NCBI GenBank assembly: GCA_016784175.1
Contig: JADHVC010000003.1
Coordinates: forward strand, 1-55,441
Length of the DNA: 55,441 nt
Reading direction: 5' to 3'
Origin: Patescibacteria group bacterium
GTDB lineage: Bacteria; Patescibacteriota; Patescibacteriia; Patescibacteriales; BS150m-G62
The notes under the pieces were generated by a model that saw nothing but the letters and a program-made list of their open reading frames with translations, ran no database searches and was not told the DNA's origin. Of the stretch, positions 2,015 to 55,441 are shown piece after piece; within the stretch, counting starts at the first letter, position 1; every line of letters begins with the position of its first letter. The translations under genes and the position numbers were made by a program.

Positions 2015-2023
2015 TGTTGTTGG

Positions 2024-4578: not shown

Positions 4579-4742
4579 TCGATCATCAAATAGATAGCTC
4601 CAACCAGAAGTTAAAGACAAGGGCAGTTGACATCTTTAAAAATTTCCTTTGTCTAATTGCTGCTTGCATGCTTTTAGGAATGGTACTCTTGTTGATACAA
4701 ACAGTAAAGAAAACAACTATTTCTTTATTACTTCTATCTTAA
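4575..4742 (+). CDS. Small hypothetical membrane protein (55 aa, absent from the ORF track)
   Basis: ATGA start/stop overlap with the upstream ORF. Translation is MIDHQIDSSNQKLKTRAVDIFKNFLCLIAACMLLGMVLLLIQTVKKTTISLLLLS, with one hydrophobic helix. A terminator follows. Confidence 0.45.
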   Translation: MIDHQIDSSNQKLKTRAVDIFKNFLCLIAACMLLGMVLLLIQTVKKTTISLLLLS

Positions 4743-4752
4743 AAAAAACAAC

Positions 4753-4780
4753 ACAGTGGGGTAACTCACTGTTTTTATTT
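4753..4780 (+). terminator. Rho-independent terminator
   Basis: Stem ACAGTG (4753-4758) / CACTGT (4767-4772), followed by TTTTTATTT. Confidence 0.55.
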
Positions 4781-4831
4781 ACAAGAAAATATTATTGTGA
4801 TACATTAAGATCGTAATTTAAACAAAAAACT

Positions 4832-5794: not shown

Positions 5795-5803
5795 ATTTAA
5801 TAA

Positions 5804-7227
<1,424 letters not shown>

Positions 7228-7228
<1 letters not shown>

Positions 7229-7653
7229 TGTCTAATTTAACTATACAATTTGAAATAGTCACACCGGAAAGAGTAATCTTAAGTGAACAGATTACGCAGG
7301 TTGTTGTCCCAACAAAAGCGGGGGAAATAACAATTTTGCCAAATCACATTCCACTTGTTTCTAGTTTAACTCCAGGAGTGATTATTGCTAAAAAAGAAGA
7401 TGGAAGCGATGTTATTATGGCCATGTCTGGGGGTTTTGTGGAAGTATTGCATGGCAAGGTTGTCATTTTAGCTGATACTGCAGAAAGAGCAGACGAGCTT
7501 GACGAAGAACGAATTGTAGAAGCTCGAGAGGTAGCTAAAAAAGCCAAAGAAGAAGTTAAGCATGTTGATCGCGAACAGTTTGCAAACATTAGTGCAAAAT
7601 TGCAAAAAGAATTAGCTAGAGAGCGAGCGCTAAAGAAATGGAGAAAATTATAG
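7228..7653 (+). CDS. atpC: F0F1 ATP synthase subunit epsilon
   Basis: 1-nt overlap with the atpD stop. The fold pattern is typical of epsilon (FEIVTPERV..., GEITILPNHIPL, SGGFVEV). Confidence 0.9.
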
Positions 7654-7693
7654 TTTGGTGGTTATTGCAAGTTCCGGGTTTTTAAATAAATAT

Positions 7694-7725
7694 GCAGCCT
7701 CTTTCAAGAGGCTGCGTTTTGTTAT
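7694..7725 (+). terminator. Rho-independent terminator after atpC
   Basis: Stem GCAGCCTC (7694-7701) / GAGGCTGC (7708-7715), followed by GTTTTGTTATTTG. Confidence 0.8.
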
Positions 7726-7889
7726 TTGTTATGAAGTATTAATATCTTTCCATGAATCTTCTGCGATGTACCTCGCAAGGATTGGGAGTTTACAATTATC
7801 TTCTATGAGAAATCCCTTATTCACGAAGATTATTTTTATTATCAATTGATGAGGCCATAACTTTCTCCTTTTTTTGATTGGTTGTTGGT

Positions 7890-9092
7890 TTATTTCAATC
7901 TTGGGTTTAGTAACATCGACATTTCGCGAATTTTTTGATCTGCTTGGAAAAATGGTCCAGACATTTTGCCAATATCATCATACCCCATAGAGTTCATTAT
8001 AAACATGTGGTCATTATCTAGCACTAATTCAAGATTATTCAGTGCAATTTTCATAAGGTCTACAAGCGATCGTCTAGTGATCACTTCTTCGAACTCTACT
8101 GACGCAACTTTTAGTATTGCGTAGACTGCAAAGGCAGTTCCCTTGGCTCTATAAAAAACATTGTCTGCCGTAAAATTCCCAACATTTGTTCTTACCATTT
8201 TATTTCCAGCATCAACAGAATCGCCAGCGCCTTCAGCGTTTGGAGTATATTTCTTTCCTGTAGATTCTTGTGACATTTTTGTTTGAATATGGCCCATTTG
8301 TGAATGTAAAACATGCAACAACGAACCCAGATTATCCTCTCTTAGTTCAAAAACAGATTGATTCTTTTGTCTAGAGGCAATGTATTGTCTTAGGCTTTCA
8401 TTTGACTCACTAAGATAATACGGGTAAATAAAGAAAATATCTTCAGGAATACTTGTTAGGCCAAGCGCGCGCTCAACAAAGGGGTCTTTATCTCCCGTCG
8501 TTCTGTGTCTTGCAACATCTTCATGAAGGGAAAAAAGAACAACTTTCCATACCTGACGCTGGCCAAGTTGAAATTCTGGTAAGTTATCCATCCACCAGCG
8601 AAAAAGTAAATTACTTGGAATCCATGTTCGATTAAGTTCACCTTGTTGCAAGTTAATTATAGTTTGTATAAACGCTTCACCAGGGACACTGGTCTTTTGG
8701 GCGACAGGCGGTCGTCGTGGTATTTGGCTGATATAGGCACCATAAAAAACTATTAAAAAGACTATTCCAAGCGCAAGAATGCTCGTTACTTGGTATCTTA
8801 TTTTTTGTCTCCTAAGATGTAGAGGTAATTCACGGAAAAGCCACCTTGTATTTTTCGGCAAAGCAAGAGTAAAACGCCAAGATTGAAGCAAGAAATTGGG
8901 TGTTCCTGTTAAAATAGCGAGCCCTGATTTCTTGATAGTTTGCATAGCCGTTGATTCGGTTGGTTCACTTTTTTGTGGCACTAACGCAAAATTTTTTTCG
9001 TCATCGGTCCCATCTTTATTGTTAATACTACTTGGGGCTAAATCGGAAGCCCTTTTCTCTTTGCTATTGTCGCTGTAATCAAATTCGGCCAT
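7890..9092 (-). CDS. Hypothetical membrane-anchored protein (possibly DUF2333-like; weak recollection)
   Basis: Start placed at MAEFDYS (9092), which has a strong SD (GGAGGAAGG) 3 nt upstream. A good promoter (9141-9169) lies inside the longer ORF-track version. There is one TM helix (ILALGIVFLIVFYGAYI). Confidence 0.65.
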   Translation of the reverse strand: MAEFDYSDNSKEKRASDLAPSSINNKDGTDDEKNFALVPQKSEPTESTAMQTIKKSGLAILTGTPNFLLQSWRFTLALPKNTRWLFRELPLHLRRQKIRYQVTSILALGIVFLIVFYGAYISQIPRRPPVAQKTSVPGEAFIQTIINLQQGELNRTWIPSNLLFRWWMDNLPEFQLGQRQVWKVVLFSLHEDVARHRTTGDKDPFVERALGLTSIPEDIFFIYPYYLSESNESLRQYIASRQKNQSVFELREDNLGSLLHVLHSQMGHIQTKMSQESTGKKYTPNAEGAGDSVDAGNKMVRTNVGNFTADNVFYRAKGTAFAVYAILKVASVEFEEVITRRSLVDLMKIALNNLELVLDNDHMFIMNSMGYDDIGKMSGPFFQADQKIREMSMLLNPRLK

Positions 9093-9140
9093 GACCTTCC
9101 TCCATGAACTTATATTGTGATTGTTAAAGAGCAGATAAGT

Positions 9141-9169
9141 ATTATAATATATTATATAAAATTTTGCAA
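9141..9169 (-). promoter_or_regulatory. Sigma70-like promoter for the 7890-9092 gene
   Basis: On the - strand, TTGCAA (9169-9164), 17-nt spacer, TATAAT (9146-9141). Confidence 0.5.
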
Positions 9170-9258
9170 AAAAAATAGCCACCGGTTAGGTAGCTATAAT
9201 GTTGATTTGTTTATTTTGTCGAATATCACCCCCTTAAAGTAATAGGTAATGACTTAAT

Positions 9259-9654
9259 TTAATTGGAAGTATTTGCCATTCGCACTTTATATATTTTATA
9301 ATAACGCCAGAATACATAAAGCGCTAAGCTGATAATTAGCAGTTCAAAAAACCAACGTACTGGAGCCGGTAAAAAAACACCAAACAATCCAGTTACGATC
9401 AATACAGTACCAATCAGCAAAAGATACCCTTCTTTCATGTATTTATAAGAAGGATGGTCAACGATAAAGCTCACAACCTTAGTCCACTTGGGATTTTTAT
9501 TGGCCCACTCGATCATGCGGATCCAAGTAAAATATAGAGTACCGAGTCCCATCGCAATTTCATCAACATAGGGAATTGTGTCTCCTTTCCAAAGAACATT
9601 TACTACGAAAAGAATAAAAAGAACAGCATCGCGAATTATCATAATTTTTATCAT
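9259..9654 (-). CDS. Hypothetical integral membrane protein (131 aa)
   Basis: ORF with 3-4 hydrophobic helices. No recognised family. Confidence 0.6.
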   Translation of the reverse strand: MIKIMIIRDAVLFILFVVNVLWKGDTIPYVDEIAMGLGTLYFTWIRMIEWANKNPKWTKVVSFIVDHPSYKYMKEGYLLLIGTVLIVTGLFGVFLPAPVRWFFELLIISLALYVFWRYYKIYKVRMANTSN

Positions 9655-9712
9655 TTCTTTCTCCCACTCTAATTGTTGTGTTGGTTTTGAAATGCTAATG
9701 CAAGATTATTGC

Positions 9713-10774
9713 CTATATTTTTTCTGCTTCGATGACTCTAAATGCAGCTTCAATATCCTCGGTTTGAAATGTAGATATTTTATTGATCGAAGATAGAAAA
9801 ACTTTTGCATTTTTGCATTTTTGGGCTAATGTTTCTGGTATTAGAATTTGATTCATTTTGTGTCTTTCAAATAGAAAAATATAACCACAATGTATTCTTG
9901 TTCTTGGATCATATTCGCTTGTTATTTCATAAAGATTAATTATTTCCTCGGCAAGGCTAAAAAAGTCAAACGCTAGTTTATACTTAACAGTTTCAATGTA
10001 GCAATATGCTCTTGCTATATATATTTGATGATCCAATCTATCGCCTAAAAATTCTTCAATCTCGTCTAGGGTCGTAATTGATTCTTCGTATTGCTTATTT
10101 TTTCTTAATAACTCTGCTAATAAGGTTTTATTCATTAATAGCGAGTTATTATTTTTTGATATACTTACAAGTTTTCTTGCAATTAAAATTGCATCTTGAT
10201 ACCTACCAAGTCCTCTAAGTGTTCTTATGAGAGTTATGTAGTCAGAATGTCCTCCTCTCATATTAACCGCTTCTTGTGCTGCCGAAGCAGCCTCAACAAA
10301 TCGACCTGTAGCCAAATAGCTTTTCGCAAGATAGATGAAAGTAGAAGCGTTTGGTTCAAGTTTAATAGCACTCATCGCAGCTTTAATAACCAGTTTATGT
10401 TCGCCTTGCTTAAAATAAATCTCTACCAAAATAGTATAAAATATAGCATACTTCTTTCTTTTAATCGTTTCTATCAATAATTGTATTGCCTCATCAAATT
10501 TTTTGAATTTTATACAAGCTCGCGCGAAAATTATCGTTGACGCTGTACTACCATTTAATTCAAAGTTCCTCTTTGCTACACGATAAGCATTTATAAAATT
10601 ACCCAGATTCATTAAGCATTGTGCTTTCAATCCAAGTGCACGAATATTATTAGGATCAATGCGCTCTACTATTTGGATTAATTCGATCGCTCGTTTTGGG
10701 TTTGTTATTCGTAAGTCATATACTAATTTCAATGTGCTATGAATATCTTTACGCTCAATTATTGTCTGACTCAT
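9713..10774 (-). CDS. TPR-repeat protein
   Basis: Repeated 34-aa-like helical motifs (A..Y..A........A). Start set at MSQTIIERKD (10774), which has the SD AAGGAGA upstream. The ORF-track start is 10825. Confidence 0.7.
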   Translation of the reverse strand: MSQTIIERKDIHSTLKLVYDLRITNPKRAIELIQIVERIDPNNIRALGLKAQCLMNLGNFINAYRVAKRNFELNGSTASTIIFARACIKFKKFDEAIQLLIETIKRKKYAIFYTILVEIYFKQGEHKLVIKAAMSAIKLEPNASTFIYLAKSYLATGRFVEAASAAQEAVNMRGGHSDYITLIRTLRGLGRYQDAILIARKLVSISKNNNSLLMNKTLLAELLRKNKQYEESITTLDEIEEFLGDRLDHQIYIARAYCYIETVKYKLAFDFFSLAEEIINLYEITSEYDPRTRIHCGYIFLFERHKMNQILIPETLAQKCKNAKVFLSSINKISTFQTEDIEAAFRVIEAEKI

Positions 10775-10855
10775 TAATATTTCTCCTTTTTTTATTAAAG
10801 ACCAGTACAAAAAAAATAATATCACTCATTAGTACTTATGTCAAAGAATATGATA

Positions 10856-11039
10856 GTAACTACTTGCTATACCTGCATTATTTTTGAGCGCATATGGAAT
10901 ATGTAGTATTTTTTAGCAGAATTTAACTTAAAAAATTTTATGTTTGAGTGAAGCGAGTTTAAAATTTTTGTTATATTGTGCGAAAATTGCCCAATATTCC
11001 ATCCTAAGCGAAAAAGTGATGTAGGTATAGTGAAGTTAC
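10856..11039 (+). repeat. ~189-nt palindromic intergenic repeat, copy 2
   Basis: 184 nt. Starts GTAACTACTTGCTATACCTGCAT and ends ATGTAGGTATAGTGAAGTTAC. It carries small deletions relative to the other copies. It lies between the divergent TPR and permease genes. Confidence 0.9.
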
Positions 11040-11166
11040 TAAGTACTGTATTGTAAAGCTTTTTAAAATATGATATCATTATAAAATTAGAAAAATAAGC
11101 ATGTAACTAAATAATATCTATCTAAACAAATACTGAAGAAATGTTTTTGTTTATAATAGAAAAGGT

Positions 11167-12468
11167 GTGTATATGAGTTTAATTTTTATAGTTAGTATAT
11201 CAATATTTGTAATTACATTTGGCTTGATACTAACCGAACGATTTCATAGAACGATTATTGGGTTAGCAGGAGCAATCTTGATGGTATTAGCGGGTAATAT
11301 GTTTGAATTTTATGACTCTAAAGAAGTAGTTGAAGCGATAGATTTTAATACGCTTGGTTTATTGTTCGGCATGATGGTTATCGTTGCTATACTAGAGAAA
11401 ACAGGCTTTTTCGAATATTTAGCAATATTAGTCGCAAAAAAAACAAAAGGAAAACCATGGGCGCTTGTTGTTGCTTTAGGTACATTAACAACTTTACTTT
11501 CACTAATCCTTGATAATGTAACAACTATAATTCTAATTGTTCCTGTGACCATTATTATCACCCAGCTGTTAAAAATAAATCCTACACCAATTTTGATGGC
11601 GGAAGCTCTGCTCTCTGATACTGGTGGTGTAGCCACGCTCGTTGGTGATCCTCCAAACATCATGATTGGATCCGCTGCTAACTTTAGCTTTAATGATTTT
11701 TTAATTCATTCAATGCCTGTAGTAATTGTGGCATGGTTTGCTACATTAATTACGCTTAAGTTTATTTACAAAAAAGAATTAAAAGAGGTTCCACAAAATA
11801 TAGACCAGTTGATGGCAATGAATGAAAAAGAAGCAATTACTGATCCTGTAACAGTGAGAAAGATATTATACGTATTATCTTTTGTTGTATTATTGTTTCT
11901 TTTGCATAGTAAATTACATTTAATGCCTTCTATGGTTGCTTTAATAGGAGCTTTTTTGGCACTATGGGTTGTGTCTGCAAAAAAAGACCCACAAAAAATA
12001 CTTGAAAAAGTCGAATTGTCTGTATTGTTATTTTTTGGTTCACTATTTGTTATAGTCGGTGGATTAGAAAATGCTGGTGTGCTTGAGCACCTTGCAAATC
12101 TTATTACTAGTGGAGTTGAAGACAATTTATTGCTAACCGCAATTATCGTACTCTGGTCTTCTGCAATTCTTTCAGCGATAGTTGATAATATTCCCTTAAC
12201 TGTTGCGATGATCCCAATTATTAGCTATCTAGAAACTCAAGGAGTTGCAGTTGGAATACTGTGGTGGGCACTTGTATTTGGTGTGGGTTTTGGAGGCAAT
12301 GGTTCGCCAATCGGGTCTACGGCCAATGTTATTGTTGTTTCTAAGAGTGAGCAAACTGATACTCCAATAACCTTTAAAACTTGGTTTAAGGCTGGAGCAT
12401 CGGTAATGTTCGTAACACTTACCGTTGCAACACTTGCCATAGTATTATTCAAAGAAATGTTTACGTAA
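11167..12468 (+). CDS. ArsB/NhaD-superfamily anion/ion permease
   Basis: About 10-12 TM helices and motifs typical of this permease superfamily (LDNVTTIILIVPV, GGVATLVGDPPNIMIGS, VDNIPLT). Start is GTG 11167 or ATG 11173. Confidence 0.75.
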   Translation: MYMSLIFIVSISIFVITFGLILTERFHRTIIGLAGAILMVLAGNMFEFYDSKEVVEAIDFNTLGLLFGMMVIVAILEKTGFFEYLAILVAKKTKGKPWALVVALGTLTTLLSLILDNVTTIILIVPVTIIITQLLKINPTPILMAEALLSDTGGVATLVGDPPNIMIGSAANFSFNDFLIHSMPVVIVAWFATLITLKFIYKKELKEVPQNIDQLMAMNEKEAITDPVTVRKILYVLSFVVLLFLLHSKLHLMPSMVALIGAFLALWVVSAKKDPQKILEKVELSVLLFFGSLFVIVGGLENAGVLEHLANLITSGVEDNLLLTAIIVLWSSAILSAIVDNIPLTVAMIPIISYLETQGVAVGILWWALVFGVGFGGNGSPIGSTANVIVVSKSEQTDTPITFKTWFKAGASVMFVTLTVATLAIVLFKEMFT

Positions 12469-12590
12469 AAATGTAAGTTATGCGATTGCTCAAACTGCTA
12501 GTACTAAATATTATTAATAACTAAATTATAATTATTCGTTTATATTTGTTTTACAAGCTTGAGAACAACCTATATACAAATAATTTCTAT

Positions 12591-13052
12591 ATGAATATAC
12601 AAAATATAATGCGACAGCCAGTTATTGTAAAAGATAATATTAGCCTTTCAGAAACTGTTCAAATAATGATGCAGAAGAAAAGGAATTCTGTTGTTATTGT
12701 TAATGATAAAGGTGAATTTGTTAGTGAGGTGGATGTCGTAAGTGTAATAAAAGCGATTTTACCAGACTATATAGAAGAAGCAAGAATTGCTGCTCATTTT
12801 GCCAGTAGCGATTATTTTATTGAATTATGCAAAAAATCCAAAGACATTCCAATAGGGGATTTTATGATGAAAAATCCTAAGACAACTACTATAGAAAGTA
12901 GTCTTATGGAAGCTGCTGTTATGTTAATAAATAGCAAGCAATCCAGAATAGCAGTGTTAGATAAAAATAAGTTTCCAGTTGGCCTACTAACTAGAACTGA
13001 ACTAAAACAAGCTATTGGTAAAATTCTAGACATTAAAGAAAGTAATAGTTAG
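12591..13052 (+). CDS. CBS-domain pair protein
   Basis: Two CBS-like units (IMRQPVIVKDNISLSETVQIMMQKKRNSVVIVNDKGEFV... and FMMKNPKTTTIESSLMEAAVMLINSKQSRIAVLDKNKFPVGLLT). ATG at 12591 chosen over the TTG at 12546. Confidence 0.75.
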   Translation: MNIQNIMRQPVIVKDNISLSETVQIMMQKKRNSVVIVNDKGEFVSEVDVVSVIKAILPDYIEEARIAAHFASSDYFIELCKKSKDIPIGDFMMKNPKTTTIESSLMEAAVMLINSKQSRIAVLDKNKFPVGLLTRTELKQAIGKILDIKESNS

Positions 13053-13100
13053 CTTGTTATATATTTAAATAGAGATACATAAAAAATATTAATCGAACCT

Positions 13101-13131
13101 AAGCGTCCAAATGTCGGGCGCTTATTTTATT
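13101..13131 (+). terminator. Rho-independent terminator after the CBS gene
   Basis: Stem AAGCGTCC (13101-13108) / GGGCGCTT (13116-13123) with one G-T pair, followed by ATTTTATT. Confidence 0.6.
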
Positions 13132-13141
13132 ACTTATATAG

Positions 13142-13171
13142 AAAAAAGACCTAAGCAAGAAGCCGAGGTCT
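13142..13171 (-). terminator. Candidate terminator for the 13197-13487 gene
   Basis: Stem AGACCT (13147-13152) / AGGTCT (13166-13171) with a 13-nt loop. A T-run follows on the - strand. Confidence 0.4.
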
Positions 13172-13196
13172 AAATTGATGTTGTGAATCGCACCCG

Positions 13197-13487
13197 TTAG
13201 ACGGTTAGCAATCCACTTATTTGATTTTCGATGGCACAAAAAGCGTCATCGAAAATAGTGGGGGAAAACTCGCATCCTTGTCTTTTTGCGAGCTTTGAGC
13301 CGATCTCGTCAATTTTGACACAGCCGCACTTTATCAGGCGACCTAAAATTTCTACTTTGTACTCCAATTGTTGACTTATATGACACCTTGCCATCTTTTT
13401 TAGTGTTTGTTTGTATTCATTAAGAATCCTCTTCAATTGGATTGTTAATTCTTTTTTCATATTAGGCAGACAAATAATTCTCACCAT
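13197..13487 (-). CDS. Hypothetical Cys-containing protein (96 aa)
   Basis: ORF with the SD AAGGAGAG just upstream of the ATG at 13487. No recognised family. Confidence 0.55.
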   Translation of the reverse strand: MVRIICLPNMKKELTIQLKRILNEYKQTLKKMARCHISQQLEYKVEILGRLIKCGCVKIDEIGSKLAKRQGCEFSPTIFDDAFCAIENQISGLLTV

Positions 13488-13572
13488 ATCTCTCCTTTTT
13501 TTTATTGAAATGAGCAGAAATACCTATAAGTAATAATAGTAAATATAAAACTATATGTCAAGCGATTTTCTT

Positions 13573-13761
13573 GTAACTACTCACTATATCTGCATTATTT
13601 TTGAGCGCATATGTAATATGTAGTAATTATTAGCACAATTTAACTTAAAAAAATTTATGTTTGAGTGAAGCGAGTTTAAAATTTTTGTTAAATTGTGCGT
13701 AAAAAAGTGCCCAATATTCCATCCTAAGCGAAAAAGTGATGCAGATGTAGTGAGTGATTAT
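13573..13761 (+). repeat. ~189-nt palindromic intergenic repeat, copy 3
   Basis: Flanked by a perfect 8-bp direct repeat ATTTTCTT (13565-13572 and 13762-13769). Lies between the divergent 13197-13487 gene and ftsW. Confidence 0.92.
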
Positions 13762-13924
13762 ATTTTCTTTATTAAAAGGTCATTTTGCGACCTCTCGCAC
13801 ATCCATATATAAATCGGCAAGCTTATCATGGACTGCTTTATAATGATTTTTCTTTAAGCAAGTGAGGTTATATAAGCAGGTATATTTTCTTTCCACGCCA
13901 GGAACTTTATGATAAAATACAAAT

Positions 13925-15058
13925 ATGCGAAAATTCCTTAGCTTTATCTTTAACCTAGGCGACAACTTTAAGAATGCTGATAAGCCCTTGATTGCAACCA
14001 TGGGAATTATTATTGCTTTTGGTTTAGTTATGTTGTCTAGCGCGACCTCTGCCGTTGCTTTTACAAAATATGGCGATAGCTACTATTTTTTTAAACATCA
14101 ACTCTTCGGTATAATCGTTGGTTCAATCTTTTTTTATTTTTTAGCTAAAATTGATTACCATAGATGGGAAAAATACGGTTTTTGGTTTTTAGTTCTCTCT
14201 ATTGTATTGCTGTTATTAGTGTTTATCCCTGGTTTAAGTGCTAGTTATGGAAAAGCGAGAAGTTGGATAAATGTATTTGGTTTTTCACTTCAACCATCTG
14301 AATTAGTAAAATTATCTTTTTTGATATATTTGTCGGCGTGGTTAGGGCGTAGGGAAAAATTTGTTAAAGACTTTACGCAAGGAACGGCTCCGTTTGTAGC
14401 TATATGGCTTGTTGTGGCAATACTAATGATATTGCAGCCAGATATTGGGACACTTTCGATCATTACAGTAGTGTCGATGATAGTGTATTTTGTTGGTGGA
14501 GGTAATATAAAACATATATTAGGTATGATAGTGCTAGGAATGATGGGGCTAGCTATTATGATAAACTTAATGCCTTATCAGGCAGCTAGAATAAAGTGCT
14601 TTACTGACCCAACATATTCTACCGCTGATGTTTGTTATCAGGTTAATCAGTCGTTAATCGCCGTGGGCTCTGGTGGATTACATGGTCGTGGACTTGGTGC
14701 GAGTAGACAAAAGTTTGCTTATTTGCCAGAGGTGTCAGGTGACTCAATTTTTGCTATTATTGGAGAAGAAACTGGCTTGATATATAGCTCATTTTTGGTA
14801 TTGTTATTTATATTCTTGTTTTATAGAGGATATATAATCGCAAAACAAGCACTAGATAGATTCGGAAAATTCCTAGCTATTGGGATTGTAAGTTGGGTAG
14901 TTTTGCAGGCATTTATTAATATTGGTGGAATGATAAACTTTATGCCTATGACAGGCGTACCCTTACCCTTTATAAGTTATGGTGGATCGGCTATATTTTC
15001 TGCAATGTCTGCCATGGGAATCCTGGTTAATATCAGTAAGCACGGCCGGTTTAGGTAA
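13925..15058 (+). CDS. ftsW: SEDS-family peptidoglycan glycosyltransferase FtsW/RodA
   Basis: Polytopic membrane protein with SEDS motifs (QPSELVKL, LQPDIGT, GSGGLHGRGLG, LPEVSGDSIFAIIGEE, PLPFISYGGS). Lies upstream of murG. Confidence 0.92.
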   Translation: MRKFLSFIFNLGDNFKNADKPLIATMGIIIAFGLVMLSSATSAVAFTKYGDSYYFFKHQLFGIIVGSIFFYFLAKIDYHRWEKYGFWFLVLSIVLLLLVFIPGLSASYGKARSWINVFGFSLQPSELVKLSFLIYLSAWLGRREKFVKDFTQGTAPFVAIWLVVAILMILQPDIGTLSIITVVSMIVYFVGGGNIKHILGMIVLGMMGLAIMINLMPYQAARIKCFTDPTYSTADVCYQVNQSLIAVGSGGLHGRGLGASRQKFAYLPEVSGDSIFAIIGEETGLIYSSFLVLLFIFLFYRGYIIAKQALDRFGKFLAIGIVSWVVLQAFINIGGMINFMPMTGVPLPFISYGGSAIFSAMSAMGILVNISKHGRFR

Positions 15059-15180
15059 AAAAAAGCCCACTGGTATATAGGCTCGTAGACAGAACGATTT
15101 CTTTCTGTAGTTTGTCAGCCATCGAGTGGTTCTTCCCAAAAGGAATCTTAATGAACCATAAATTAAATATAGTATACAAC

Positions 15181-16254
15181 ATGAAAAATCTCAAGAGAAT
15201 TTTATATTCTGGCGGGGGAACAGGTGGGTCAGTTACTCCTCTCTTAGCCTTACACCAAGAATTAATAGCGAACAATAGCTATATTGTCGCTCTTTGGGTT
15301 GGAACTGGTTTTGGGCCGGAGCAGGCTATGGCTAAAGAGGCCAATATTGACTTTAGAGTCATAAAAAGTGGGAAGCTAAGACGCTATTTTTCACTTCAAA
15401 ATTTTTTCGATCCTCTTAGAGTTGCTTTTGGGTTCTTCGAGGCTATCGCTATAATGCGTAACTTTAAGCCAGATATTGCAATTACAGCCGGTGGGTTTGT
15501 AAGCGTACCAGTTATTTGGGCCGCTAAATTATTAGGTATTACTACTATTGTCCACCAACAAGACGCTCGACCAGGCTTGGCTAATAAGTTAATGGCTCCC
15601 TTCGCCACAATAATAACCGTCACTTTTAAAAAATCTCTCGAGCATTACGGCAAAAAGGCAATACTAACTGGCAATCCAGTAAAAAAAGTAAGCGTTAATA
15701 TAAATATACTAGCACAAAGAAGTAAGTACAACTTTAATAATATTTTGCCAATAGTTTTAGTGATGGGCGGTGGTACTGGTGCGCGAAAAATTAACGAGCT
15801 AATTAACGAGGGTCTTAAAGACTTGTGCAAATTTACTAATATAATCCACATAACAGGTAAGGGTAAAAATCAAGATACATATAACCATCAAACACCGAAA
15901 AACTATATGTGCCTTGAATTTGTTAATCATGCTGAAATGTACAATATTTATGCTTTGGCAGATATTGTAGTTAGCCGGGCTGGCATGGGAGCGTTGACTG
16001 AATTGTCATATCTTAAAAAACCTGCCATAATTATCCCAATGCTTAGTTCACACCAAGAAGATAATGCTAAAATTCTTGGCGACACGAAGGCTGCAATAGT
16101 TTTAGACCAAAAAAAACTTACAGCTGTAGCTTTGGTAAGTAATATTAAAACTATAATTGAAAATAAAACACTGCAAAATCAACTATCGATAAATATAGAA
16201 AAAGCCATAAAAACTGATGGGGCAAAAGAAATAGCCAAGATTATTAATAAATAG
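15181..16254 (+). CDS. murG: UDP-GlcNAc:undecaprenyl-PP-MurNAc-pentapeptide GlcNAc transferase MurG
   Basis: GGGTGGSVTPLLAL N-terminal G-loop, later GGGTGARKIN, and SRAGMGALTEL. Start set at MKNLKRIL (15181); the ORF-track start is 15112. Confidence 0.9.
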   Translation: MKNLKRILYSGGGTGGSVTPLLALHQELIANNSYIVALWVGTGFGPEQAMAKEANIDFRVIKSGKLRRYFSLQNFFDPLRVAFGFFEAIAIMRNFKPDIAITAGGFVSVPVIWAAKLLGITTIVHQQDARPGLANKLMAPFATIITVTFKKSLEHYGKKAILTGNPVKKVSVNINILAQRSKYNFNNILPIVLVMGGGTGARKINELINEGLKDLCKFTNIIHITGKGKNQDTYNHQTPKNYMCLEFVNHAEMYNIYALADIVVSRAGMGALTELSYLKKPAIIIPMLSSHQEDNAKILGDTKAAIVLDQKKLTAVALVSNIKTIIENKTLQNQLSINIEKAIKTDGAKEIAKIINK

Positions 16255-16286
16255 TCAACTTCAGATTAACCGTTTAAAATAATAAA

Positions 16287-17687
16287 ATGGACATATCAAA
16301 AGTTAAAAATATATACATGATAGGAATAAAAGGCGTAGGTATGACAATGCTTGCTCAGTATTTTGCGTCTAAAGGAATGAAGGTGACTGGATCAGATACC
16401 GCTGAAAAATTTATGACAGACCAGGTTTTAGAAAAATGTAAAATTCCAGTAATAGAAAAATTCAATAAATTAAATATTCCTAAAGATGCTGATGTAATAA
16501 TTTATTCTTCCGCATATAACGAAATTAATAACGAAGAAGTGCGATCTGTGATTAATACAAATCGCAAAGTGCTGTGTTATGCAAAAGCACTAGGCGATGT
16601 TTTTAATCAGTATTACGGAATAGGTGTTATTGGCTCGCATGGCAAAACTACGACTTCTGCTTGGCTTGGATTTGTTATGGACTCGGCTGGATTAAAACCA
16701 AATGTTATGGTTGGAGCAAGAGTGCCACAATTCAATGGAAGCTCTTTAATTAATGAATCAAATTATTTAGTTGCAGAGCTAGACGAATATCAAAATAAGT
16801 TTCAATATGCTAGTCCTCAAGCAGTAATATTAAACAACATTGACTTTGATCACCCAGATTTTTTCCCTACCCATGAAAGCTATACTCAAGTCTTTATCGA
16901 CTTAGTAAAAAGGATTCCAAAAAAAGGATTGCTTGTTGCCAATCTTGATGATGAAAAAGTTGAAAAAATAGTACAATTAAATTTTGAGTTTAAGGCTATA
17001 ACATACGCTATAAAAAATGGCAAAGCAAATTACATAGCGTCAGAAATAGAACAGGCTTTGGGCAGGCAATATTTTCGTGTTTCTTTTGATAATGAAGACC
17101 TTGGAATTTTCAATATTAAACTGACTGGCGACCATAATATCTTAAATGCTCTTGGTGTAATTGCTATGTGTGTCGAATTGGAAATAGACTTAATTGACAT
17201 CCGAACTTACTTGGCAGATTTTATTGGCACAGAAAGACGAATGCAGACTCTGGGGGAATACAATAAAGCTTTAATTATCGATGATTATGCACATCATCCG
17301 ACTGAAATAAGGGTTACTTTAGCTGGTATAAAAAAATTATATCCTTCGAAGAATATAATTTGCGTATTTCATCCACATACTTTTACAAGAACTAAAGCTC
17401 TCCTAGATGAATTTGCTAATAGCTTTAATGATGCTGATAAAATTGTAGTACTTGATATTTATGGATCTGCTAGGGAAGAGCAGGGTGGGATCAGCTCTAA
17501 AAGTATAGTTGATAAAATTATAGAATTAAATAATAATAATGATAGGGGTAATCAGGAAGTATTGTATATTCCTAGTTTTATGGAATGTGAAGAGTATTTA
17601 CGAAAAATTGCTAAAAACAACGACCTAATTTTATTAATGGGTGCTGGAGATATATTTAAAATAGGGAAGAATTTAATAAGAATATAA
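16287..17687 (+). CDS. murC: UDP-N-acetylmuramate--L-alanine ligase MurC
   Basis: GIKGVGMTMLA, the Mur ligase P-loop GSHGKTTTSAW, and DDYAHHPTEI. Confidence 0.93.
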   Translation: MDISKVKNIYMIGIKGVGMTMLAQYFASKGMKVTGSDTAEKFMTDQVLEKCKIPVIEKFNKLNIPKDADVIIYSSAYNEINNEEVRSVINTNRKVLCYAKALGDVFNQYYGIGVIGSHGKTTTSAWLGFVMDSAGLKPNVMVGARVPQFNGSSLINESNYLVAELDEYQNKFQYASPQAVILNNIDFDHPDFFPTHESYTQVFIDLVKRIPKKGLLVANLDDEKVEKIVQLNFEFKAITYAIKNGKANYIASEIEQALGRQYFRVSFDNEDLGIFNIKLTGDHNILNALGVIAMCVELEIDLIDIRTYLADFIGTERRMQTLGEYNKALIIDDYAHHPTEIRVTLAGIKKLYPSKNIICVFHPHTFTRTKALLDEFANSFNDADKIVVLDIYGSAREEQGGISSKSIVDKIIELNNNNDRGNQEVLYIPSFMECEEYLRKIAKNNDLILLMGAGDIFKIGKNLIRI

Positions 17688-21969: not shown

Positions 21970-23034
21970 TTAGTTATCGTCTGCACTTGATACTCTCACT
22001 TTCTGTAATAATTCATTATCACCCAACATAATGCCGGTGCCCCTGACTACACAAGTTAAAGGATCCTCTCCTATTCTAACAGGTATTTTTGTTGCTTGAG
22101 CTATGCACTTATCTATATTTCTTAGCAAGGCTACACCTCCAGTAAGCACAATGCCATTTTCATAAATATCAGAAACAAGTTCTGGCGGAGTTATTTCAAG
22201 TACAATTTTTATATTGTCAACAATTTTTGTAATAGAACGAGACATTGCTTCTCGAATCTGAGTATCAGATATTTCAATCTGTTTTGGTAAACCTGTAATT
22301 AAATCTCTACCCCTAGCCTTCATCGTTAGTGGTTCTTTTAGCGCAAGAGCTGAACCAATGCTAATCTTAATATTTTCTGCGATCTGATCACCAATTAAAA
22401 TATTAAATTCTTCTCGAATATACTGAACTATGCTATTATCTAATTCATCTCCCGCAAGCTGCATGCTTTTCCATGTAACAACGCCACCAAGAGAGATTAC
22501 GGCTATCTCGGTTATGCCACCGCCTATATCTATTATTAAGCTAGCTTTAGCATCAAGAACTGGAAATCGAGCACCAATTGCTGCGGCCATAGACTCCTCA
22601 ACTAAAACTACTTCACGAGCACCAGCGGACTTTGTAACATCCTCAACTGCTTTTTTTTCAACCTCTGTGATATCCAATGGTATTCCAATGATAACCCTAG
22701 GTCGAGGCGATATTGTAAAATCTTCAGCATGTACTTTATCGATGAAATACTTAATCATTCTTTCGGTTATTTCGTAATCTGAAATAACACCTTTAATTAA
22801 TGGTCTAATGGCAGCTATGTGCGAGGGTGTTTTTCCAATCATAACTCTTGCTTCTTCTCCCACAGCAATAATTTCATCAGTCTTTATGTTAATAGCCACG
22901 ACTGATGGTTCGTTAATTACAATACCTCTATCGGATGAGTAAACGAGTGTATTCTTTGTACCGAGATCTATTCCGATATCTTTTGAAAATTTTCCTAAGA
23001 ATCTATTTAACACAATAAAAAAATCAAGATGCAA
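21970..23034 (-). CDS. mreB: Rod shape-determining actin homologue MreB
   Basis: DIGIDLGTKNTLVY, IDIGGGITEIAVISLGG and GIVLTGGVALLRNID are actin-fold ATPase motifs. Confidence 0.96.
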   Translation of the reverse strand: MHLDFFIVLNRFLGKFSKDIGIDLGTKNTLVYSSDRGIVINEPSVVAINIKTDEIIAVGEEARVMIGKTPSHIAAIRPLIKGVISDYEITERMIKYFIDKVHAEDFTISPRPRVIIGIPLDITEVEKKAVEDVTKSAGAREVVLVEESMAAAIGARFPVLDAKASLIIDIGGGITEIAVISLGGVVTWKSMQLAGDELDNSIVQYIREEFNILIGDQIAENIKISIGSALALKEPLTMKARGRDLITGLPKQIEISDTQIREAMSRSITKIVDNIKIVLEITPPELVSDIYENGIVLTGGVALLRNIDKCIAQATKIPVRIGEDPLTCVVRGTGIMLGDNELLQKVRVSSADDN

Positions 23035-23079
23035 AATAAATTATGCAAAATGATGCAATAAAATTGAAGATAAATTATT

Positions 23080-23268
23080 GTAACTGCTCACTATATCTGC
23101 ATTATTTTTGAGCGCATATGGAATATGTAGCAATTTTTAGCAGAATTTAACTTAAAAAATTTTATGTTTGAGTGAAGCGAGTTTAAAATTTTTGTTAAAT
23201 TGTGCGTAAAAAATTGCCCAATATTCCATCTTAAGCGAAAAAGTGATGTAGATATAGTGAGCAGTTAC
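23080..23268 (+). repeat. ~189-nt palindromic intergenic repeat, copy 4 (complete reference copy)
   Basis: GTAACTGCTCACTATATCTGCAT ... ATGTAGATATAGTGAGCAGTTAC. Ends 3 nt from the proS stop codon. The flanks AAATTATT and TAATTATA match at 6 of 8 positions. Confidence 0.93.
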
Positions 23269-23271
23269 TAA

Positions 23272-24516
23272 TTATAACTGTAGTTTTTGAACTATCTCAT
23301 CAATATTTACAAATTCAACTTCCCCAGTAGCGCGATTTTTTATCTCAACTAGACCTTTTTCAATATTCTTTTTGCTGACGATAATACGTTTTGTGCAACC
23401 TATTTTATCTGCAAGTGAAAATTTTTCACCAGGTCGACTATCTAGCCTATCATCATACAACACGTCAATTTTCATGTCTAGTAAATTTTGGTAAATCTCC
23501 TCACCTCGAACCTTTACTGACTCATTATCTTGATTAATCAAAATAATATGAACGTTAAATGGTGCAATTTCCTTTGGCCAAATTATACCCTCTTTATCAT
23601 TACTAATTTCAACAACTGTTCCCATAAGCCGACCAAGACCTATACCATAACAACCCATAATAACATCACTTTGCTCACCATTTTGATTAGTAACTTGAAA
23701 GTCAAATGAAGCACTAAATTTATTTTTTAGTTTAAATATATTGCCAACTTCTATGGACTTATGCTTAATAAGCTTTTTTGTTTTGCAATTTGGACAATCA
23801 CTTTGAACATCGATAATCTCCTCATTAATTGCTAGGTTGCATTTATCACAAACATAGATATTGTCCTCGCCAGCTACACAAAGAGTTTGAAATTCATGTG
23901 AAAATTGTGAAAATGAACCACCAGACGCAAAAGTTAAATAAGTAGAGCCAAGGATGCCACATCGTTTGAAAATTCTAAAGTAAGCTTTTTGGACTAATTT
24001 ATAATATTCATTCAAATCTTCTTCATCTAAATGAAAAGAATATAAATCTTTCATCATAAATTCCCGACCACGAAGTATTCCTGATTTAGCTCTTAATTCA
24101 TTTCGAAATTTTGTTTGGAATTGATAAACTTTAGTTGGTAAGTCTTTATAGGAATGTATATGCTTTTGCATTAAAGGAACAACTACTTCTTCATGGGACT
24201 GACCAAGAACCAATTTAGAACCCCCTTTTAATTCAGTATTAAAGAGAACATCAATATCCTGTCTGCCAGTTTGAATGTAATTTTGCAATGGATGTAATGC
24301 TGGCATATAAACCTCCTGACCATCAATATTATTTATTTCTTCACGAATTACATTTTCAATCTTTTTTATAACTCGCAAGCCTAAGGGCAAAAGTGTATAT
24401 ACCCCAGAAAATAGCTTGTCTATAAAGCCAGCTTGAATTAATAGCTGTGCGTTTAAGCTAGTCTCATCGCTTGGCACTTGTTTTAAGGATTTTGTAAAAA
24501 GTTGCGATTGGCGCAT
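23272..24516 (-). CDS. proS: Prolyl-tRNA synthetase, short bacterial-type lacking the INS editing domain
   Basis: N-terminus MRQSQLFTKSLKQVPSDETSLNAQLLIQAGFI and class II motifs (FRNELRAKSGILRGREFMMKD, GCYGIGLGRL). Only 414 aa. CDKC...CPNC (residues 223-244) sits where the ~180-aa INS domain normally lies. Confidence 0.9.
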   Translation of the reverse strand: MRQSQLFTKSLKQVPSDETSLNAQLLIQAGFIDKLFSGVYTLLPLGLRVIKKIENVIREEINNIDGQEVYMPALHPLQNYIQTGRQDIDVLFNTELKGGSKLVLGQSHEEVVVPLMQKHIHSYKDLPTKVYQFQTKFRNELRAKSGILRGREFMMKDLYSFHLDEEDLNEYYKLVQKAYFRIFKRCGILGSTYLTFASGGSFSQFSHEFQTLCVAGEDNIYVCDKCNLAINEEIIDVQSDCPNCKTKKLIKHKSIEVGNIFKLKNKFSASFDFQVTNQNGEQSDVIMGCYGIGLGRLMGTVVEISNDKEGIIWPKEIAPFNVHIILINQDNESVKVRGEEIYQNLLDMKIDVLYDDRLDSRPGEKFSLADKIGCTKRIIVSKKNIEKGLVEIKNRATGEVEFVNIDEIVQKLQL

Positions 24517-25780: not shown

Positions 25781-25884
25781 CGTCTATAACCCCTTTTGTA
25801 AAGAACAATTGATTAATAATGTTATAATAGACAAAAATTAGCATATTTACAAGTCTTGGTAAGTCTCTACTATAAACAAAAAAA

Positions 25885-26074
25885 GCAACTACTCACTATA
25901 TCTGCATTATTTTTGAGCGCATATGGAATATGTAGTAATTTTTAGCAGAATTTAACTTAAAAAAATTTATGTTTGAGTGAAACGAGTTTAAAATTTTTGT
26001 TAAATTGTGCGTAAAAAAATTGCTCAATATTCCATCCTAAGCGAAAAAGTAATGTAGATATAGTAAGTAGTTAC
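25885..26074 (+). repeat. ~189-nt palindromic intergenic repeat, copy 5
   Basis: GCAACTACTCACTATATCTGCAT ... ATGTAGATATAGTAAGTAGTTAC. The flanks CAAAAAAA and TAAAAAAA match at 7 of 8 positions but are low-complexity. Ends 46 nt upstream of the murD ATG. Confidence 0.92.
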
Positions 26075-26120
26075 TAAAAAAATAATTGAAAAAAGTATAC
26101 ATAAGTGGTATTTTTATACT

Positions 26121-43449: not shown

Positions 43450-43710
43450 TTCCCTTATAAATTGTTAATGAACGATAACACTTTATATAAAGACTACATC
43501 ATGTAGTATTTTTTTTCAATCCCTACGGTAAAGTACTGATAACCAATCAAAATAACCCAAAGAATAAAACTATTTTTCATACCAGTCTCGTATCCATCTA
43601 ACTATATCCACAAAAAGTGTTTACTCAAAAGAATACGCACTCTATTTGTAATGCAATAAAAAAAAGTAGTTAGGGATACCGAACACACAAAAATACGCAC
43701 TACTTAAATG

Positions 43711-43899
43711 CTAACTGCTCACTATGTCTGCATTATTTTTGAGCGCATATGGAATATGTAGTAATTTTTCGCAGAATTTAACTTAAAAAATTTTATGTTT
43801 GAGTGAAGCGAGTTTAAAATTTTTGTTAAATTGTGCATAAAAAATTGCCCAATATTCCATCCCAAGCGAAAAAGTGATGCAGACATAGTGAGCAGTTAC
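43711..43899 (+). repeat. ~189-nt palindromic intergenic repeat, copy 6
   Basis: Flanked by a perfect 8-bp direct repeat CTTAAATG (43703-43710 and 43900-43907). The terminal arms CTAACTGCTCACTATGTCTGCAT and ATGCAGACATAGTGAGCAGTTAC pair at 22 of 23 positions. Confidence 0.93.
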
Positions 43900-43984
43900 C
43901 TTAAATGCTATTGTTTTTTTTAGTAAATATGATTTACTATAATGAATCGCAATGTTCTTTAAATATACTTAAAAGGAGAAACGG

Positions 43985-44449
43985 GTGAAAATTATTTTTT
44001 TGCAAACCGGTGGGACAATTGATAAAGATTACAAGGCAAATAAAAAAAATCATGGATACAATTTTGAAATTCATAAACCTGCCGTTAAGTTCATTTTACA
44101 TGCACTTAAACCAAAATTTAAATATAAAATATTAACTGTCTGTAAAAAAGATAGTTTATATCTAACAGATAATGACAGGCAAAGAATTCTTCACCAATGC
44201 CAAAAAATAAAAGCCAAAAAGATCATCATTACTCATGGAACAGATACATTTAAAAAAACTGCCGAGCAACTCAGCCAAATTACAGACAAGGCTATTATTT
44301 TAACTGGCGCTATGGTGCCTGCAAGATTCGTTGATACGGACGCTATCTTCAATATAGGCGTTGCAATAGGTGCTATAAACAATATAAAAAATGGAGTCTA
44401 TATATCTATTGGTGGTATCACATACCCTTGGGACGATTATAACCCATAA
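43985..44449 (+). CDS. Asparaginase-family N-terminal-domain protein (154 aa)
   Basis: GTG start after the SD AAGGAGAA. Carries the signature motifs FLQTGGTIDK (TGGTI) and ITHGTDT. Only about half the length of type I/II asparaginases. Confidence 0.7.
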   Translation: MKIIFLQTGGTIDKDYKANKKNHGYNFEIHKPAVKFILHALKPKFKYKILTVCKKDSLYLTDNDRQRILHQCQKIKAKKIIITHGTDTFKKTAEQLSQITDKAIILTGAMVPARFVDTDAIFNIGVAIGAINNIKNGVYISIGGITYPWDDYNP

Positions 44450-45235: not shown

Positions 45236-45304
45236 ATTTCCTACGACTATATAATAACATAGTCCTTAATCTTAAAAATTTCTTTTTCTGAATTTACCAA
45301 ATTA

Positions 45305-45722
45305 TTATTTTGATAAACTCGGAAAAGGAGGGATTGTAGCGGTATACAATCCCATAATGATAATCACCGAAAAATCCGCTTCGGTCCAGTTGTTGTCAGC
45401 TGAGGTTTTTTCGAACCTCATCAAGGGCAGACTGCATAGCAATCCGATCTTCCACGGAAGGGCCACAACCGCTGACATCATCTTCATCTTCAAAAAAAGG
45501 ATACTTCCCGAAAACAGCCTTTCCATCTTTGCTGATTCCACCATGGAGATACTCTTCACCGCCGTCTATTCCGACAACGAGGTTGTCTTTAGGAGCGGAG
45601 GCCCACAGAGTTTGGGTTGCCCCTCCCTCTAAATGAACGATACTGGTTTCGTAGACCAACACTTGATGGTCATGTTTTTTTCCGCCCTTATTAATCGTGT
45701 CCCACACCAACTGACTCTTCAT
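45305..45722 (-). pseudogene. High-GC hypothetical gene disrupted by a frameshift at a homopolymer
   Basis: ATG at 45722 with the SD GGGGGAGA upstream. The 108-aa frame stops at 45396, and a -1 shift (dropping one base) at the A6/T6 run (45406-45411) continues into the 84-aa-ORF frame down to 45305. Local GC is visibly far above the window background. Confidence 0.5.
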
Positions 45723-46038
45723 GCCATTTTTCTCCCCCGTTTATTCGACTGGCGAGGAGCTCTAATAATAAAGTTAAACTTCTGAGTACTAGCTTTAGTT
45801 GTAACAATTAAATTACATCCAAGGCTAGTACCCAGAAAACAACAACTGAATTTTAAAGAACAATTCTCTTTGTCTTTTACAAAGAGATAATTAAATACAA
45901 AAGTGAATTGAATTCTTATATTTAATTATCTTTTTGGAATTAATCGTGATGTTATCTTAACATATTATATTAATAATGTCAATAGCATTAGACAATAATC
46001 ACTACTGTCCGGTAGAAATTTTGGCGAAGCCAAAATTG

Positions 46039-46764
46039 TTACCAAAAACTTTGCTGTGGATTTTCTTCTGGTTTGAATTTAATAATTGTTTTTGTGTCTA
46101 GCGAGAGCATATCAATTAGACTCCTCCTAAACATTATCGTTTCTTTAATCATCCTTGTTAGCGTTAACAGTGATTTTTTAAATTTTGTTTGAAATTTAAT
46201 ATAGGCTAATAATAAATAATAAATCATCGCTATCCAAATTTGCGTCATTACTGCATTTTTACTTGTTCCTAGGAATGTTTTGATTTTCAAATTCTGCTTA
46301 ATCCATTTAAAGAAAATTTCTATCTGCCATCTGTCTTTATAAATACCAGCAATTTGCAGAGCTGTAAGTGTGAAATTGTTTGTTAAATATATATACTCTT
46401 TTTTTGTTTCTTCGTCATAATATTTAATTCTTCTTAGCTTTTTCGGATACTTTTCATATTTCATTGTCATATAATCGCCAAAAATCACTATTTCATCGGC
46501 TATTACGCCTTTTTCTAATGTTTTTTTATGCTGTCCGACAACAAAGATATTTTGGTTACTTTTAGCTCTTGAAACAAAAGTAATTTCTTTTTTATCTAAT
46601 TCTTTCCACCATTCATAATCAATGTAGGCTCTATCAAAAACCAATATGCTACCTTTCTCAATATTTAAAATCATTTGCTTTATGGCTGTGATATCAGCAA
46701 CATTACCTTCGGTAATGTTCAATAACTCTGGTATTGTTGTGCGGTTATTCAGTAATGTGTTCAA
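46039..46764 (-). mobile_element. IS4-family DDE transposase, 5'-truncated remnant
   Basis: The Y-(2)-R-(3)-E-(6)-K signature is present in YKDRWQIEIFFKWIK, along with the DRAY second-Asp motif. The frame is open for only 8 codons upstream of the TTG at 46764, so the N-terminal domain and first catalytic Asp are missing. Confidence 0.75.
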
Positions 46765-47013
46765 TCCAATAGCAAGGCCAAGATTTGTTTAATTGAGAAT
46801 ACGCAAAAAAAATCGCATTCAGCTCATGAAGTGATCTCTCAGTGTTTTTCCCATGATCATGTGAGCAAAATTGCTAATGGAGAAATGTTATTTTTCGAAA
46901 CAATCTACGGGAAAGATGCAGAAAAAGAATGTTCGAAAAAAAATATAACTCACAGCAGCGTAAAAAAATAATCAAAACGAAGTATCAAGGAGCAAATATT
47001 ATCCATAGTTACG

Positions 47014-47049
47014 CCAGTGATCCACACTAAACGTGGACACTGGTTTTTT
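47014..47049 (+). terminator. Orphan terminator-like hairpin following a gene 3' fragment
   Basis: CCAGTGATCCAC (47014-47025) / GTGGACACTGG (47033-47043), an imperfect stem followed by TTTTTTC. Confidence 0.45.
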
Positions 47050-47165
47050 CTTTGTTGAAAATTTTATGCATTGCCTTGTATTCGGTATTCTTAAATAATT
47101 AATTTACAAGTGGGTTATTATCTTGAAGTAAAAAAACAGGCTAAAATTAACCCATTTTTTATCCG

Positions 47166-47236
47166 CAGGGGTGGCAGGAATCGAACCCACGCTAGAGGTT
47201 TTGGAGACCCCTGTACTACCACTATACGACACCCCC
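47166..47236 (-). tRNA. trnW: tRNA-Trp (anticodon CCA)
   Basis: Hand-folded cloverleaf on the - strand: acceptor GGGGGTG/CACCCCT (G1-U72), U8, D-arm GTAT-AGTGGTA-GTAC, anticodon arm GGGGT-CTCCAAA-ACCTC, 4-nt variable loop, T-arm GTGGG-TTCGATT-CCTGC, discriminator G. CCA is not encoded. Resembles E. coli tRNA-Trp. Confidence 0.88.
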
Positions 47237-47365
47237 CCCTTAAATATTTACTAAATATAACTAATTTATTCACCCTCAATTGAATTACCAGGACAATAAC
47301 AAGAAATTACAGATCCTCAAGGTGAAACAAATATCTACAGTTATCATTAAATTAAAAATAGCAAA

Positions 47366-55136: not shown

Positions 55137-55287
55137 AAAATTTTTTGCCCACCTAATCTTCAAGGTCAAGCTACTAAAATGACACAAAATAAAGAGTTGA
55201 GCTACCCTAAGAATTATCTCAAGGCTTATTATTTAATTTATAGGATAAGTATATCAGAAAAATTATATTTTGTCAAGCATAAGGCAA

Positions 55288-55441
55288 GTAACTTCATTAT
55301 ATCTGCATTATTTTTGAGCGCATATGGAATATGTAGTAATTTTTAGCACAATTTAACTTAAAAAATTTTATGTTTGAGTGAAGCGAGTTTAAAATTTTTG
55401 TTAAATTGTGCGTAAAAAATTGCCCAATATTCCATCCTAAG
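55288..55441 (+). repeat. ~189-nt palindromic intergenic repeat, copy 7 (right part cut by window edge)
   Basis: Starts GTAACTTCATTATATCTGCATTATTTTTGAGCGCATATGG and runs to the last base of the window. Lies upstream of the helicase gene. Confidence 0.9.

Follow-up and report, generated by a model that had tools for sequence, protein, structure and literature searches.

What is the palindromic repeat that recurs between the genes of contig JADHVC010000003.1 (GenBank assembly GCA_016784175.1), from a Patescibacteria group bacterium: a mobile element that has been inserted again and again, or a palindrome that evolved in place? We analysed the whole 55,441-nucleotide contig, hereafter the window, together with related metagenome contigs. 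We consider it highly probable that the repeat is a miniature inverted-repeat transposable element (MITE), a DNA transposon of the non-autonomous kind, and that its copies multiplied recently in one marine, Falkowbacteria-like lineage of Patescibacteria. The evidence that carries this reading is an 8-bp direct repeat that directly abuts the terminal inverted repeats (TIRs) of most copies.

An 8-bp duplication at the ends of a 189-bp repeat

The repeat unit is 189 bp long, with individual copies spanning 184–201 bp. Its TIR arms of 29–30 nt (GTAACTRCTCACTATATCTGCATTATTTTT and its complement) are 90–93% complementary and conserved across all copies; the left TIR starts GTAACTRCTCACTATATCTGCAT, and the end sequence is also given as GTAACTRCTCAC and GTAACTRCTCACTAT. 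The interior is mostly self-complementary and near-invariant across copies. We found no usable reading frame in the element, each frame either being closed or, where open, lacking a start codon. Peptide searches with these frames returned a single spurious open reading frame (ORF) call, and a concatenated six-frame query had no match. Nor does the element match an Rfam family at gathering score, a tRNA-Trp being the sole match in the whole window.

The seven copies in the window make up 2.3% of its sequence (Table 1). An ORF mis-called from one element frame led to contigs L049 and L050, with 4.5 extra copies. Contig L049, a 113-kb contig from the same population, holds five (four full copies and a solo end within 20 kb, range 2393–16332; ~4% of the contig), and the metagenome contig L046 holds one. 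Every copy that we have seen is intergenic. The boundaries of the element were set independently, as the limits of the seven-copy alignment, and dozens of metagenome contigs diverge at 43712 and 43899 and likewise at 23080 and 23268. Derivatives also occur: a 51-bp solo right end (L049 13839–13889), a copy that contains a 13-bp internal tandem duplication, GTTTAAAATTTTT (L049 5951–6151), and a copy internally deleted to ~80 bp, which retains an 8-bp duplication, in a metatranscriptome contig of run X11. Direct-repeat families D4–D20 of the window, with two or three copies each, were rejected as short chance matches.

A sequence-only reading of the window had described perfect 8-bp repeats around copies 6 and 3, imperfect pairs around copies 5 and 4 and none around copy 2. 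Each pair is present where that reading placed it (Table 1), the abutting 8-mers of copy 2 agree at only 2/8 positions, and the proposed duplication holds up when flanks are compared across copies. For this comparison we took the 8 bases before and after the element in ten complete copies (five from the window and five from other contigs) and used as control mismatched pairs, each made of a left and a right flank from different copies, which retain both AT-richness and any target preference. Flanks of the same copy are identical at 61/80 positions and mismatched pairs at 31/80; in 100,000 permutations the total of 61 was attained by the identity pairing alone (p ~2e-5). The individual copies score 8, 8, 7, 7, 7, 7, 6, 6, 3 and 2, and at least 6/8 positions match in 8/10. 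Mismatched pairs average 3.1/8, none reaching 8/8 and 1% reaching 7/8.

The signal is also specific in length and register. A scan of duplication lengths from 2 to 15 gives a single sharp peak at 8 (identity 0.76), with 0.54 at 7, 0.51 at 9 and a background of ~0.39. Shifting the boundary by 1–3 nt on either side lowers the total of 61 to 29–44, and only the abutting register scores. The internally deleted metatranscriptome copy, flanked by GTAAAATA and GTAAAATC, provides an eleventh case. These results confirm that the 8-bp flank duplication is real, specific to 8 bp and far above chance.

Because a duplication of fixed length and copy-variable sequence directly abuts TIRs of ~30 bp, we read it as the trace of staggered-cut (DDE-type) integration. 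A DDE-type transposase supplied in trans would bind both TIRs, cut the target with an 8-bp stagger and join the element ends to the cuts, and repair of the gaps would yield the duplication.

Some flanks have features of their own. The direct repeat around copy 6 is actually 11 bp long (CTTAAATGCTA), because the left TIR of this copy begins with C instead of G. Non-G first bases recur elsewhere, and in each case (C at window 43711, T at L046 1046, A at L049 6151) the base is the one that follows the right duplication; these copies look as though one base were missing from their left end and the duplication were 9 bp long (10 bp in copy L49d). At copy 2, the left 27 nt (10829–10855, TTAGTACTTATGTCAAAGAATATGATA) are imperfectly repeated across the right 36 nt (11040–11075, TAAGTACTGTATTGTAAAGCTTTTTAAAATATGATA), which may represent either an exceptionally long flanking duplication or a rearrangement that came afterwards. 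The right duplication of copy 4 shares bases with the stop codon of the gene for histidyl-tRNA synthetase (23272–24516, minus strand).

The family appears to be young and confined. The closest homologues of the RodA/FtsW protein encoded beside copy 3 come from uncultured Patescibacteria (the named ones from Candidatus Falkowbacteria), the nearest being 81% identical, and window sequence is present in marine metagenome runs and in two ENA assemblies. The gene order RodA-MurG-MurC-MurB-PBP2-MreC-MreB-HisS is conserved in three relatives, with 77–81% amino-acid identity in RodA, and the 11–21 kb examined at the syntenic locus of each contain no copy of the element. Their MreB-HisS spacers measure 30–140 bp; that of the window measures 237 bp, including 197 bp of element plus duplication. 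Across three metagenome runs the summed depth of the element is 1000–5000 vs 8–10 for unique flanks (~100–600x), and its copy number is on the order of one hundred to several hundred if all of this depth comes from the present population. Copies share 92–98% identity with copy 4, and no older degenerate copies emerged from a profile search.

Table 1. Copies of the repeat, flanking duplications and predicted promoter elements in the window
Feature	Position	Strand	Description
Copy 1	1–157	+	5' part missing at window start; right TIR end at 157
Copy 2	10856–11039	+	Most diverged; indels in right TIR; abutting 8-bp repeat absent
Copy 3	13573–13761	+	Right terminus mutated from GTTAC to ATTAT
Copy 4	23080–23268	+	Nearest to family consensus; 30-nt TIRs, 90% complementary
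Copy 5	25885–26074	+	Flanked by 7/8 duplication
Copy 6	43711–43899	+	First base C, not G
Copy 7	55288–55441	+	3' part missing at window end
Left duplication, copy 6	43703–43710		CTTAAATG; partner at 43900–43907, 8/8
Right duplication, copy 6	43900–43907		CTTAAATG; identity runs on through CTA to 43910
Left duplication, copy 3	13565–13572		ATTTTCTT; partner at 13762–13769, 8/8
Right duplication, copy 3	13762–13769		ATTTTCTT
Left duplication, copy 4	23072–23079		AAATTATT; partner TAATTATA at 23269–23276, 6/8
Flanks, copy 5	25877–25884, 26075–26082		CAAAAAAA / TAAAAAAA, 7/8
Predicted promoter at copy 3	13533–13561	-	Sigma-70-type TTGACA-17-TATTAT (11/12), outward; -35 (13556–13561) 11 nt from left end
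Predicted promoter at copy 2	10816–10844	-	Sigma-70-type TTGACA-17-TATTAT (11/12, with TG), outward; -35 at 10839–10844, 11-nt spacing
Predicted -35 at copy 7	55271–55276	-	TTGACA (TGTCAA on +), 11 nt from left end; TATACT 17 nt beyond
-35-like hexamer at copy 5	26086–26091	+	TTGAAA, 11 nt from right end; TATTTT 17 nt beyond; upstream of MurD-like gene
-35-type hexamers, right flanks	11051–11056 (copy 2), 43911–43916 (copy 6)		Same spacing; also in L049 flanks

Position relative to predicted promoters

Beyond the duplication, the flanks of different copies have a promoter-like layout in common. We read 22 flanks outward from the element: both flanks of the ten complete copies and one each from the two copies at the window ends. 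TTG occupies flank positions 12–14 in 10/22 and the exact hexamer TTGACA starts there in five (binomial p ~2e-11 each against the word frequencies of intergenic DNA in the window; ~7e-10 when corrected for 30 positions). In most of these flanks a -10-like hexamer follows 17 nt further on (TATTAT, TATTAT, TATATT, TATACT, TATCAT, TATTTT). A promoter scan of 10.7–13.95 kb returned the sites beside copies 2 and 3 as its two best matches. Independent metagenome contigs repeat the layout TGTCAA-11 nt-GTAAC, and one right flank carries TTGATA at positions 12–17. The flanks are unrelated apart from the two hexamers, and the predicted promoters therefore seem to be host promoters and no part of the element.

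In this layout the 8-bp duplication corresponds to about -46 to -39 of an outward-firing predicted promoter, 3 bases from the -35 hexamer. The implied target before insertion would be TGTCAA-N3-[N8]-N3-TTGACA, with one half-site usually present. We favour target choice at insertion over selection as the source of this spacing, because selection alone would equally tolerate insertions further upstream. A DDE transpososome would be expected to give just such a preference, symmetric about the staggered cut. Insertion would favour an A/T-rich 8-mer 3 bp upstream of a -35-type hexamer, one half-site being enough; copies would then come to lie upstream of promoters, in many cases in the space that separates divergent genes, and would be tolerated there by a compact genome.

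We tentatively propose, at somewhat less than even confidence, that the machinery reads a -35-type hexamer 3 bp outside its 8-bp cut and so puts the element, exact to the base pair, into the UP-element position of sigma-70 promoters in one chromosomal orientation. If true, the element would home to promoters as a safe haven within a streamlined genome of the candidate phyla radiation (CPR), in which it accounts for a few percent of the DNA. The exact 11-nt spacing between element and hexamer makes it possible to test whether a bacterial transposon chooses its targets close to promoters.

Hairpin arms, orientation and competing explanations

Folded as single-stranded DNA, the whole element forms one hairpin with a free energy of -48 kcal/mol, vs -14.8 +/- 2.6 for shuffled sequences (z = -12.6). 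In the consensus fold, 66 of the 68 predicted pairs are kept by 80% or more of the ten copies. Two-sided changes that preserve pairing occur at six pairs, all within the outermost 20 bp of the terminal stem, in a count drawn from ten related sequences whose shared ancestry can inflate it. Only 1/500 column shuffles gives six such pairs and none matches either the number of changed cells (ten) or the covariation score, while sliding the partner by 1–3 columns leaves 0–2 two-sided pairs. Six conserved G.U (G.T) pairs lie on the + strand, and no conserved A.C position was found. Arm variants are visible in single copies (examples lie at window 43711–43740 with 43870–43899 and at L049 2393–2581): L49c has GTAGATAC at both ends in place of GTAACTAC, copy 6 pairs TATGTC with GACATA, and L49b and copy 1 pair TACTTG with CAAGTA. 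The compensatory pattern suggests that the two TIR arms at some stage pair with each other in a single-stranded hairpin, whether as DNA in replication or transposition or as RNA; alternatively, mismatch repair in an extruded hairpin may account for the paired changes.

The copies on a contig also share one orientation (7/7 in the window and 5/5 in L049), an outcome with a chance of ~1 in 1000. Transcription direction is not the cause, as both strands carry genes around the copies. A connection with replication is plausible, and replication-linked orientation bias has been documented for several insertion sequence (IS) families with DDE transposases (PMC3971601).

Several observations weigh against a MITE mobilised by a DDE transposase. 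Uniform orientation is unexpected for a symmetric DDE transpososome, and a model in which a transposase binds the TIRs does not require compensatory changes in their arms. Two of the ten complete copies (copy 2 and L49a) have no duplication. The relatives share only ~64–75% nucleotide identity with the window (aligned, mostly coding sequence), and their intergenic DNA is unalignable, which makes a base-exact comparison of insertion sites impossible. Logan contigs of nine DNA runs contain no joint that skips any of copies 2–6, and those of three RNA runs contain none either, though this test for empty sites is weak because the repeat interrupts contigs and rare variants are lost from them.

The transposase itself is a further such point. 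As the sequence-only reading had remarked, the window contains neither a transposase bounded by these TIRs nor a matching end near the DDE remnant at 46039–46764, the only transposase-like ORF of the window (PF01609 DDE_Tnp_1, IS4/IS5 type; single-copy in assemblies). A scan of 185,579 reference genomes (596 Gb) with the TIR pattern gave lone chance matches in unrelated taxa. The corresponding metagenome scan gave one true copy (that in L046) and 32 chance matches, with no inverted partner within 6 kb; viral contigs yielded no TIR-bounded partner, and plasmids and phages likewise nothing. The reference collection holds one genome per GTDB species and this species is not represented in it, and we therefore treat the absence of a partner from the scans as missing data and not as evidence of absence. 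Contigs L027 and L032, which start with GTAACTGCTCAC, were dropped as unrelated ORF-poor DNA.

Among other explanations, the one that survives best holds that the element is a structured module used by the host, an RNA hairpin or a protein-binding palindrome upstream of promoters, which selection maintains and for which transposition was only the route of arrival. Such a role is compatible with a MITE origin. It would fit the fixed 11-nt spacing to outward-firing -35 hexamers, the six two-sided stem pairs (1/500 shuffles), the near-invariant interior and the element fragments present in metatranscriptome contigs. We nonetheless regard it as unlikely. Selection alone leaves the exact 3-bp gap between duplication and hexamer unexplained, and the family is young, hence its invariant interior weighs little. 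The RNA evidence is of low depth and could reflect DNA carry-over, the covariation comes from ten related sequences and is possibly inflated by ancestry, and the relatives run the same promoters without the element. The sequence-only reading had called the element a MITE rather than a regulatory palindrome. The first half of that statement is supported by the duplication and the anatomy of the element; the second drew the choice too strictly, since the compensatory changes in the terminal stem and the fixed promoter-adjacent position leave room for secondary roles.

A more remote explanation is that an HUH/Y1 enzyme of the IS200/IS605 or REP/RAYT-like kind mobilises the element as a single strand and inserts it into the lagging-strand template. 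This would account for the whole-element hairpin (-48 kcal/mol, z -12.6), for copies that point in the same direction on each contig and for six G.T pairs on the + strand with no conserved A.C, and compensatory arm changes also speak in its favour. The right end GTTAC moreover contains TTAC, the target of IS608. We consider this route improbable, however, because a variable 8-bp duplication abuts both ends of the element, the flanks differ between copies without a fixed abutting motif, and orientation bias is known for DDE-type IS families as well (PMC3971601). It is well established that IS200/IS605 and REP-type elements make no target duplication, use a fixed short adjacent target and carry subterminal hairpins instead of long TIRs (PMC5027513).

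That the flank matches arose by chance in AT-rich, low-complexity DNA around a local palindrome with no history of transposition has a negligible probability: several of the 8-mers are indeed runs of A or T (CAAAAAAA, AAAAAAAC, TTTTTTAG) and mismatched pairs still average 3.1/8, but CTTAAATG and ATTTTCTT are perfect and non-repetitive, the scans peak only at length 8 and offset 0 (p ~2e-5 with composition and target preference kept), and the copies lie on several contigs and are absent from relatives.

Related elements, genomic consequences and neighbouring features

A MITE needs a transposase from elsewhere, and the termini give some indication of its family. IS66 elements are described, in PMC11946415 citing TnCentral, as having 20–30-bp inverted repeats starting GTAAGCG and 8-bp direct repeats, and the same paper places them mostly in Proteobacteria, with some in Bacteroidetes/Chlorobi and Firmicutes. 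The element resembles IS66 (including the single-ORF ISBst12 group) in its GTAAC start, TIRs of ~30 bp and 8-bp target-site duplication, and differs in its terminus, GTAACTR in place of the canonical GTAAGCG. The IS66 family or ISBst12 group is thus the best lead to the putative transposase source, on the strength of three shared features and short of membership. In the ~130 kb that we read from this organism we saw neither a tnpA/B/C gene nor any other transposase of the IS66 type. Duplications of 8 bp are also made by ISL3, IS6, IS256 and IS1595. We know of no target preference beside -35 hexamers in IS66.

Comparison with small non-autonomous repeats places the element among known kinds. 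The Correia elements of Neisseria (CREE/NEMIS) are high-copy intergenic MITEs of ~100–160 bp with ~26-bp TIRs and a long hairpin, and they lie near promoters and affect the expression of neighbouring genes. They differ in their 2-bp TA duplication and in carrying promoter parts inside their own ends, whereas the present element has an 8-bp duplication and promoters predicted in its unique flanks. MITEPsy1 of Pseudomonas syringae, one of the bacterial MITEs whose mobility has been shown by experiment, is likewise non-coding, with TIRs, a target duplication and a transposase acting in trans; it is 100 nt long, duplicates 4 nt at CTAG/YTAA and has ~6 copies and a probable parent, ISPsy2 (PMC3189936). 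The element described here, by comparison, is 189 nt long, has an 8-nt duplication and no known parent, and exists in about a hundred copies or more. REP/BIME, ERIC and IS200/IS605-derived repeats are likewise palindromes that occur between genes in high copy number, and they too show orientation bias and compensatory changes in their stems, but unlike the present element they have no target-site duplication.

Bacterial MITEs are well known, while Patescibacteria/CPR genomes are small and usually called repeat-poor. Taken as a MITE, the element is a new family without a new principle, in an unusual host and at an unusual density. We found no paper on MITEs in Patescibacteria or CPR. One copy per 5–8 kb would affect assembly, binning and recombination, and hundreds of near-identical, promoter-adjacent hairpins would constitute a natural experiment on transcription effects in an organism that cannot yet be manipulated.

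Assemblies from this population bear marks of the repeat. Both ends of the window fall inside element copies and Logan contigs stop at every copy, which suggests that the window is a whole short-read contig broken at the repeat. Contigs found through the genes at the window ends likewise terminate at the repeat. A 1653-nt contig of run X6, from a strain ~98.4% identical, corresponds to window 22708–23268, copy 4 included, and then continues past the element end into DNA that is not in the window, which hints at a rearrangement at a repeat copy.

Two observations concern the neighbourhood of copy 6. The gene downstream of it (43985–44449) encodes only the N-terminal domain of an asparaginase (154 aa) and may be truncated. 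Further along, the PF01609 remnant adjoins a stretch of 45% G+C at 45300–45750 (with a 108-aa ORF; 33% G+C elsewhere) and the tRNA-Trp gene at 47165–47236; the region 45300–47240 may preserve what is left of foreign DNA that had inserted at a tRNA gene.

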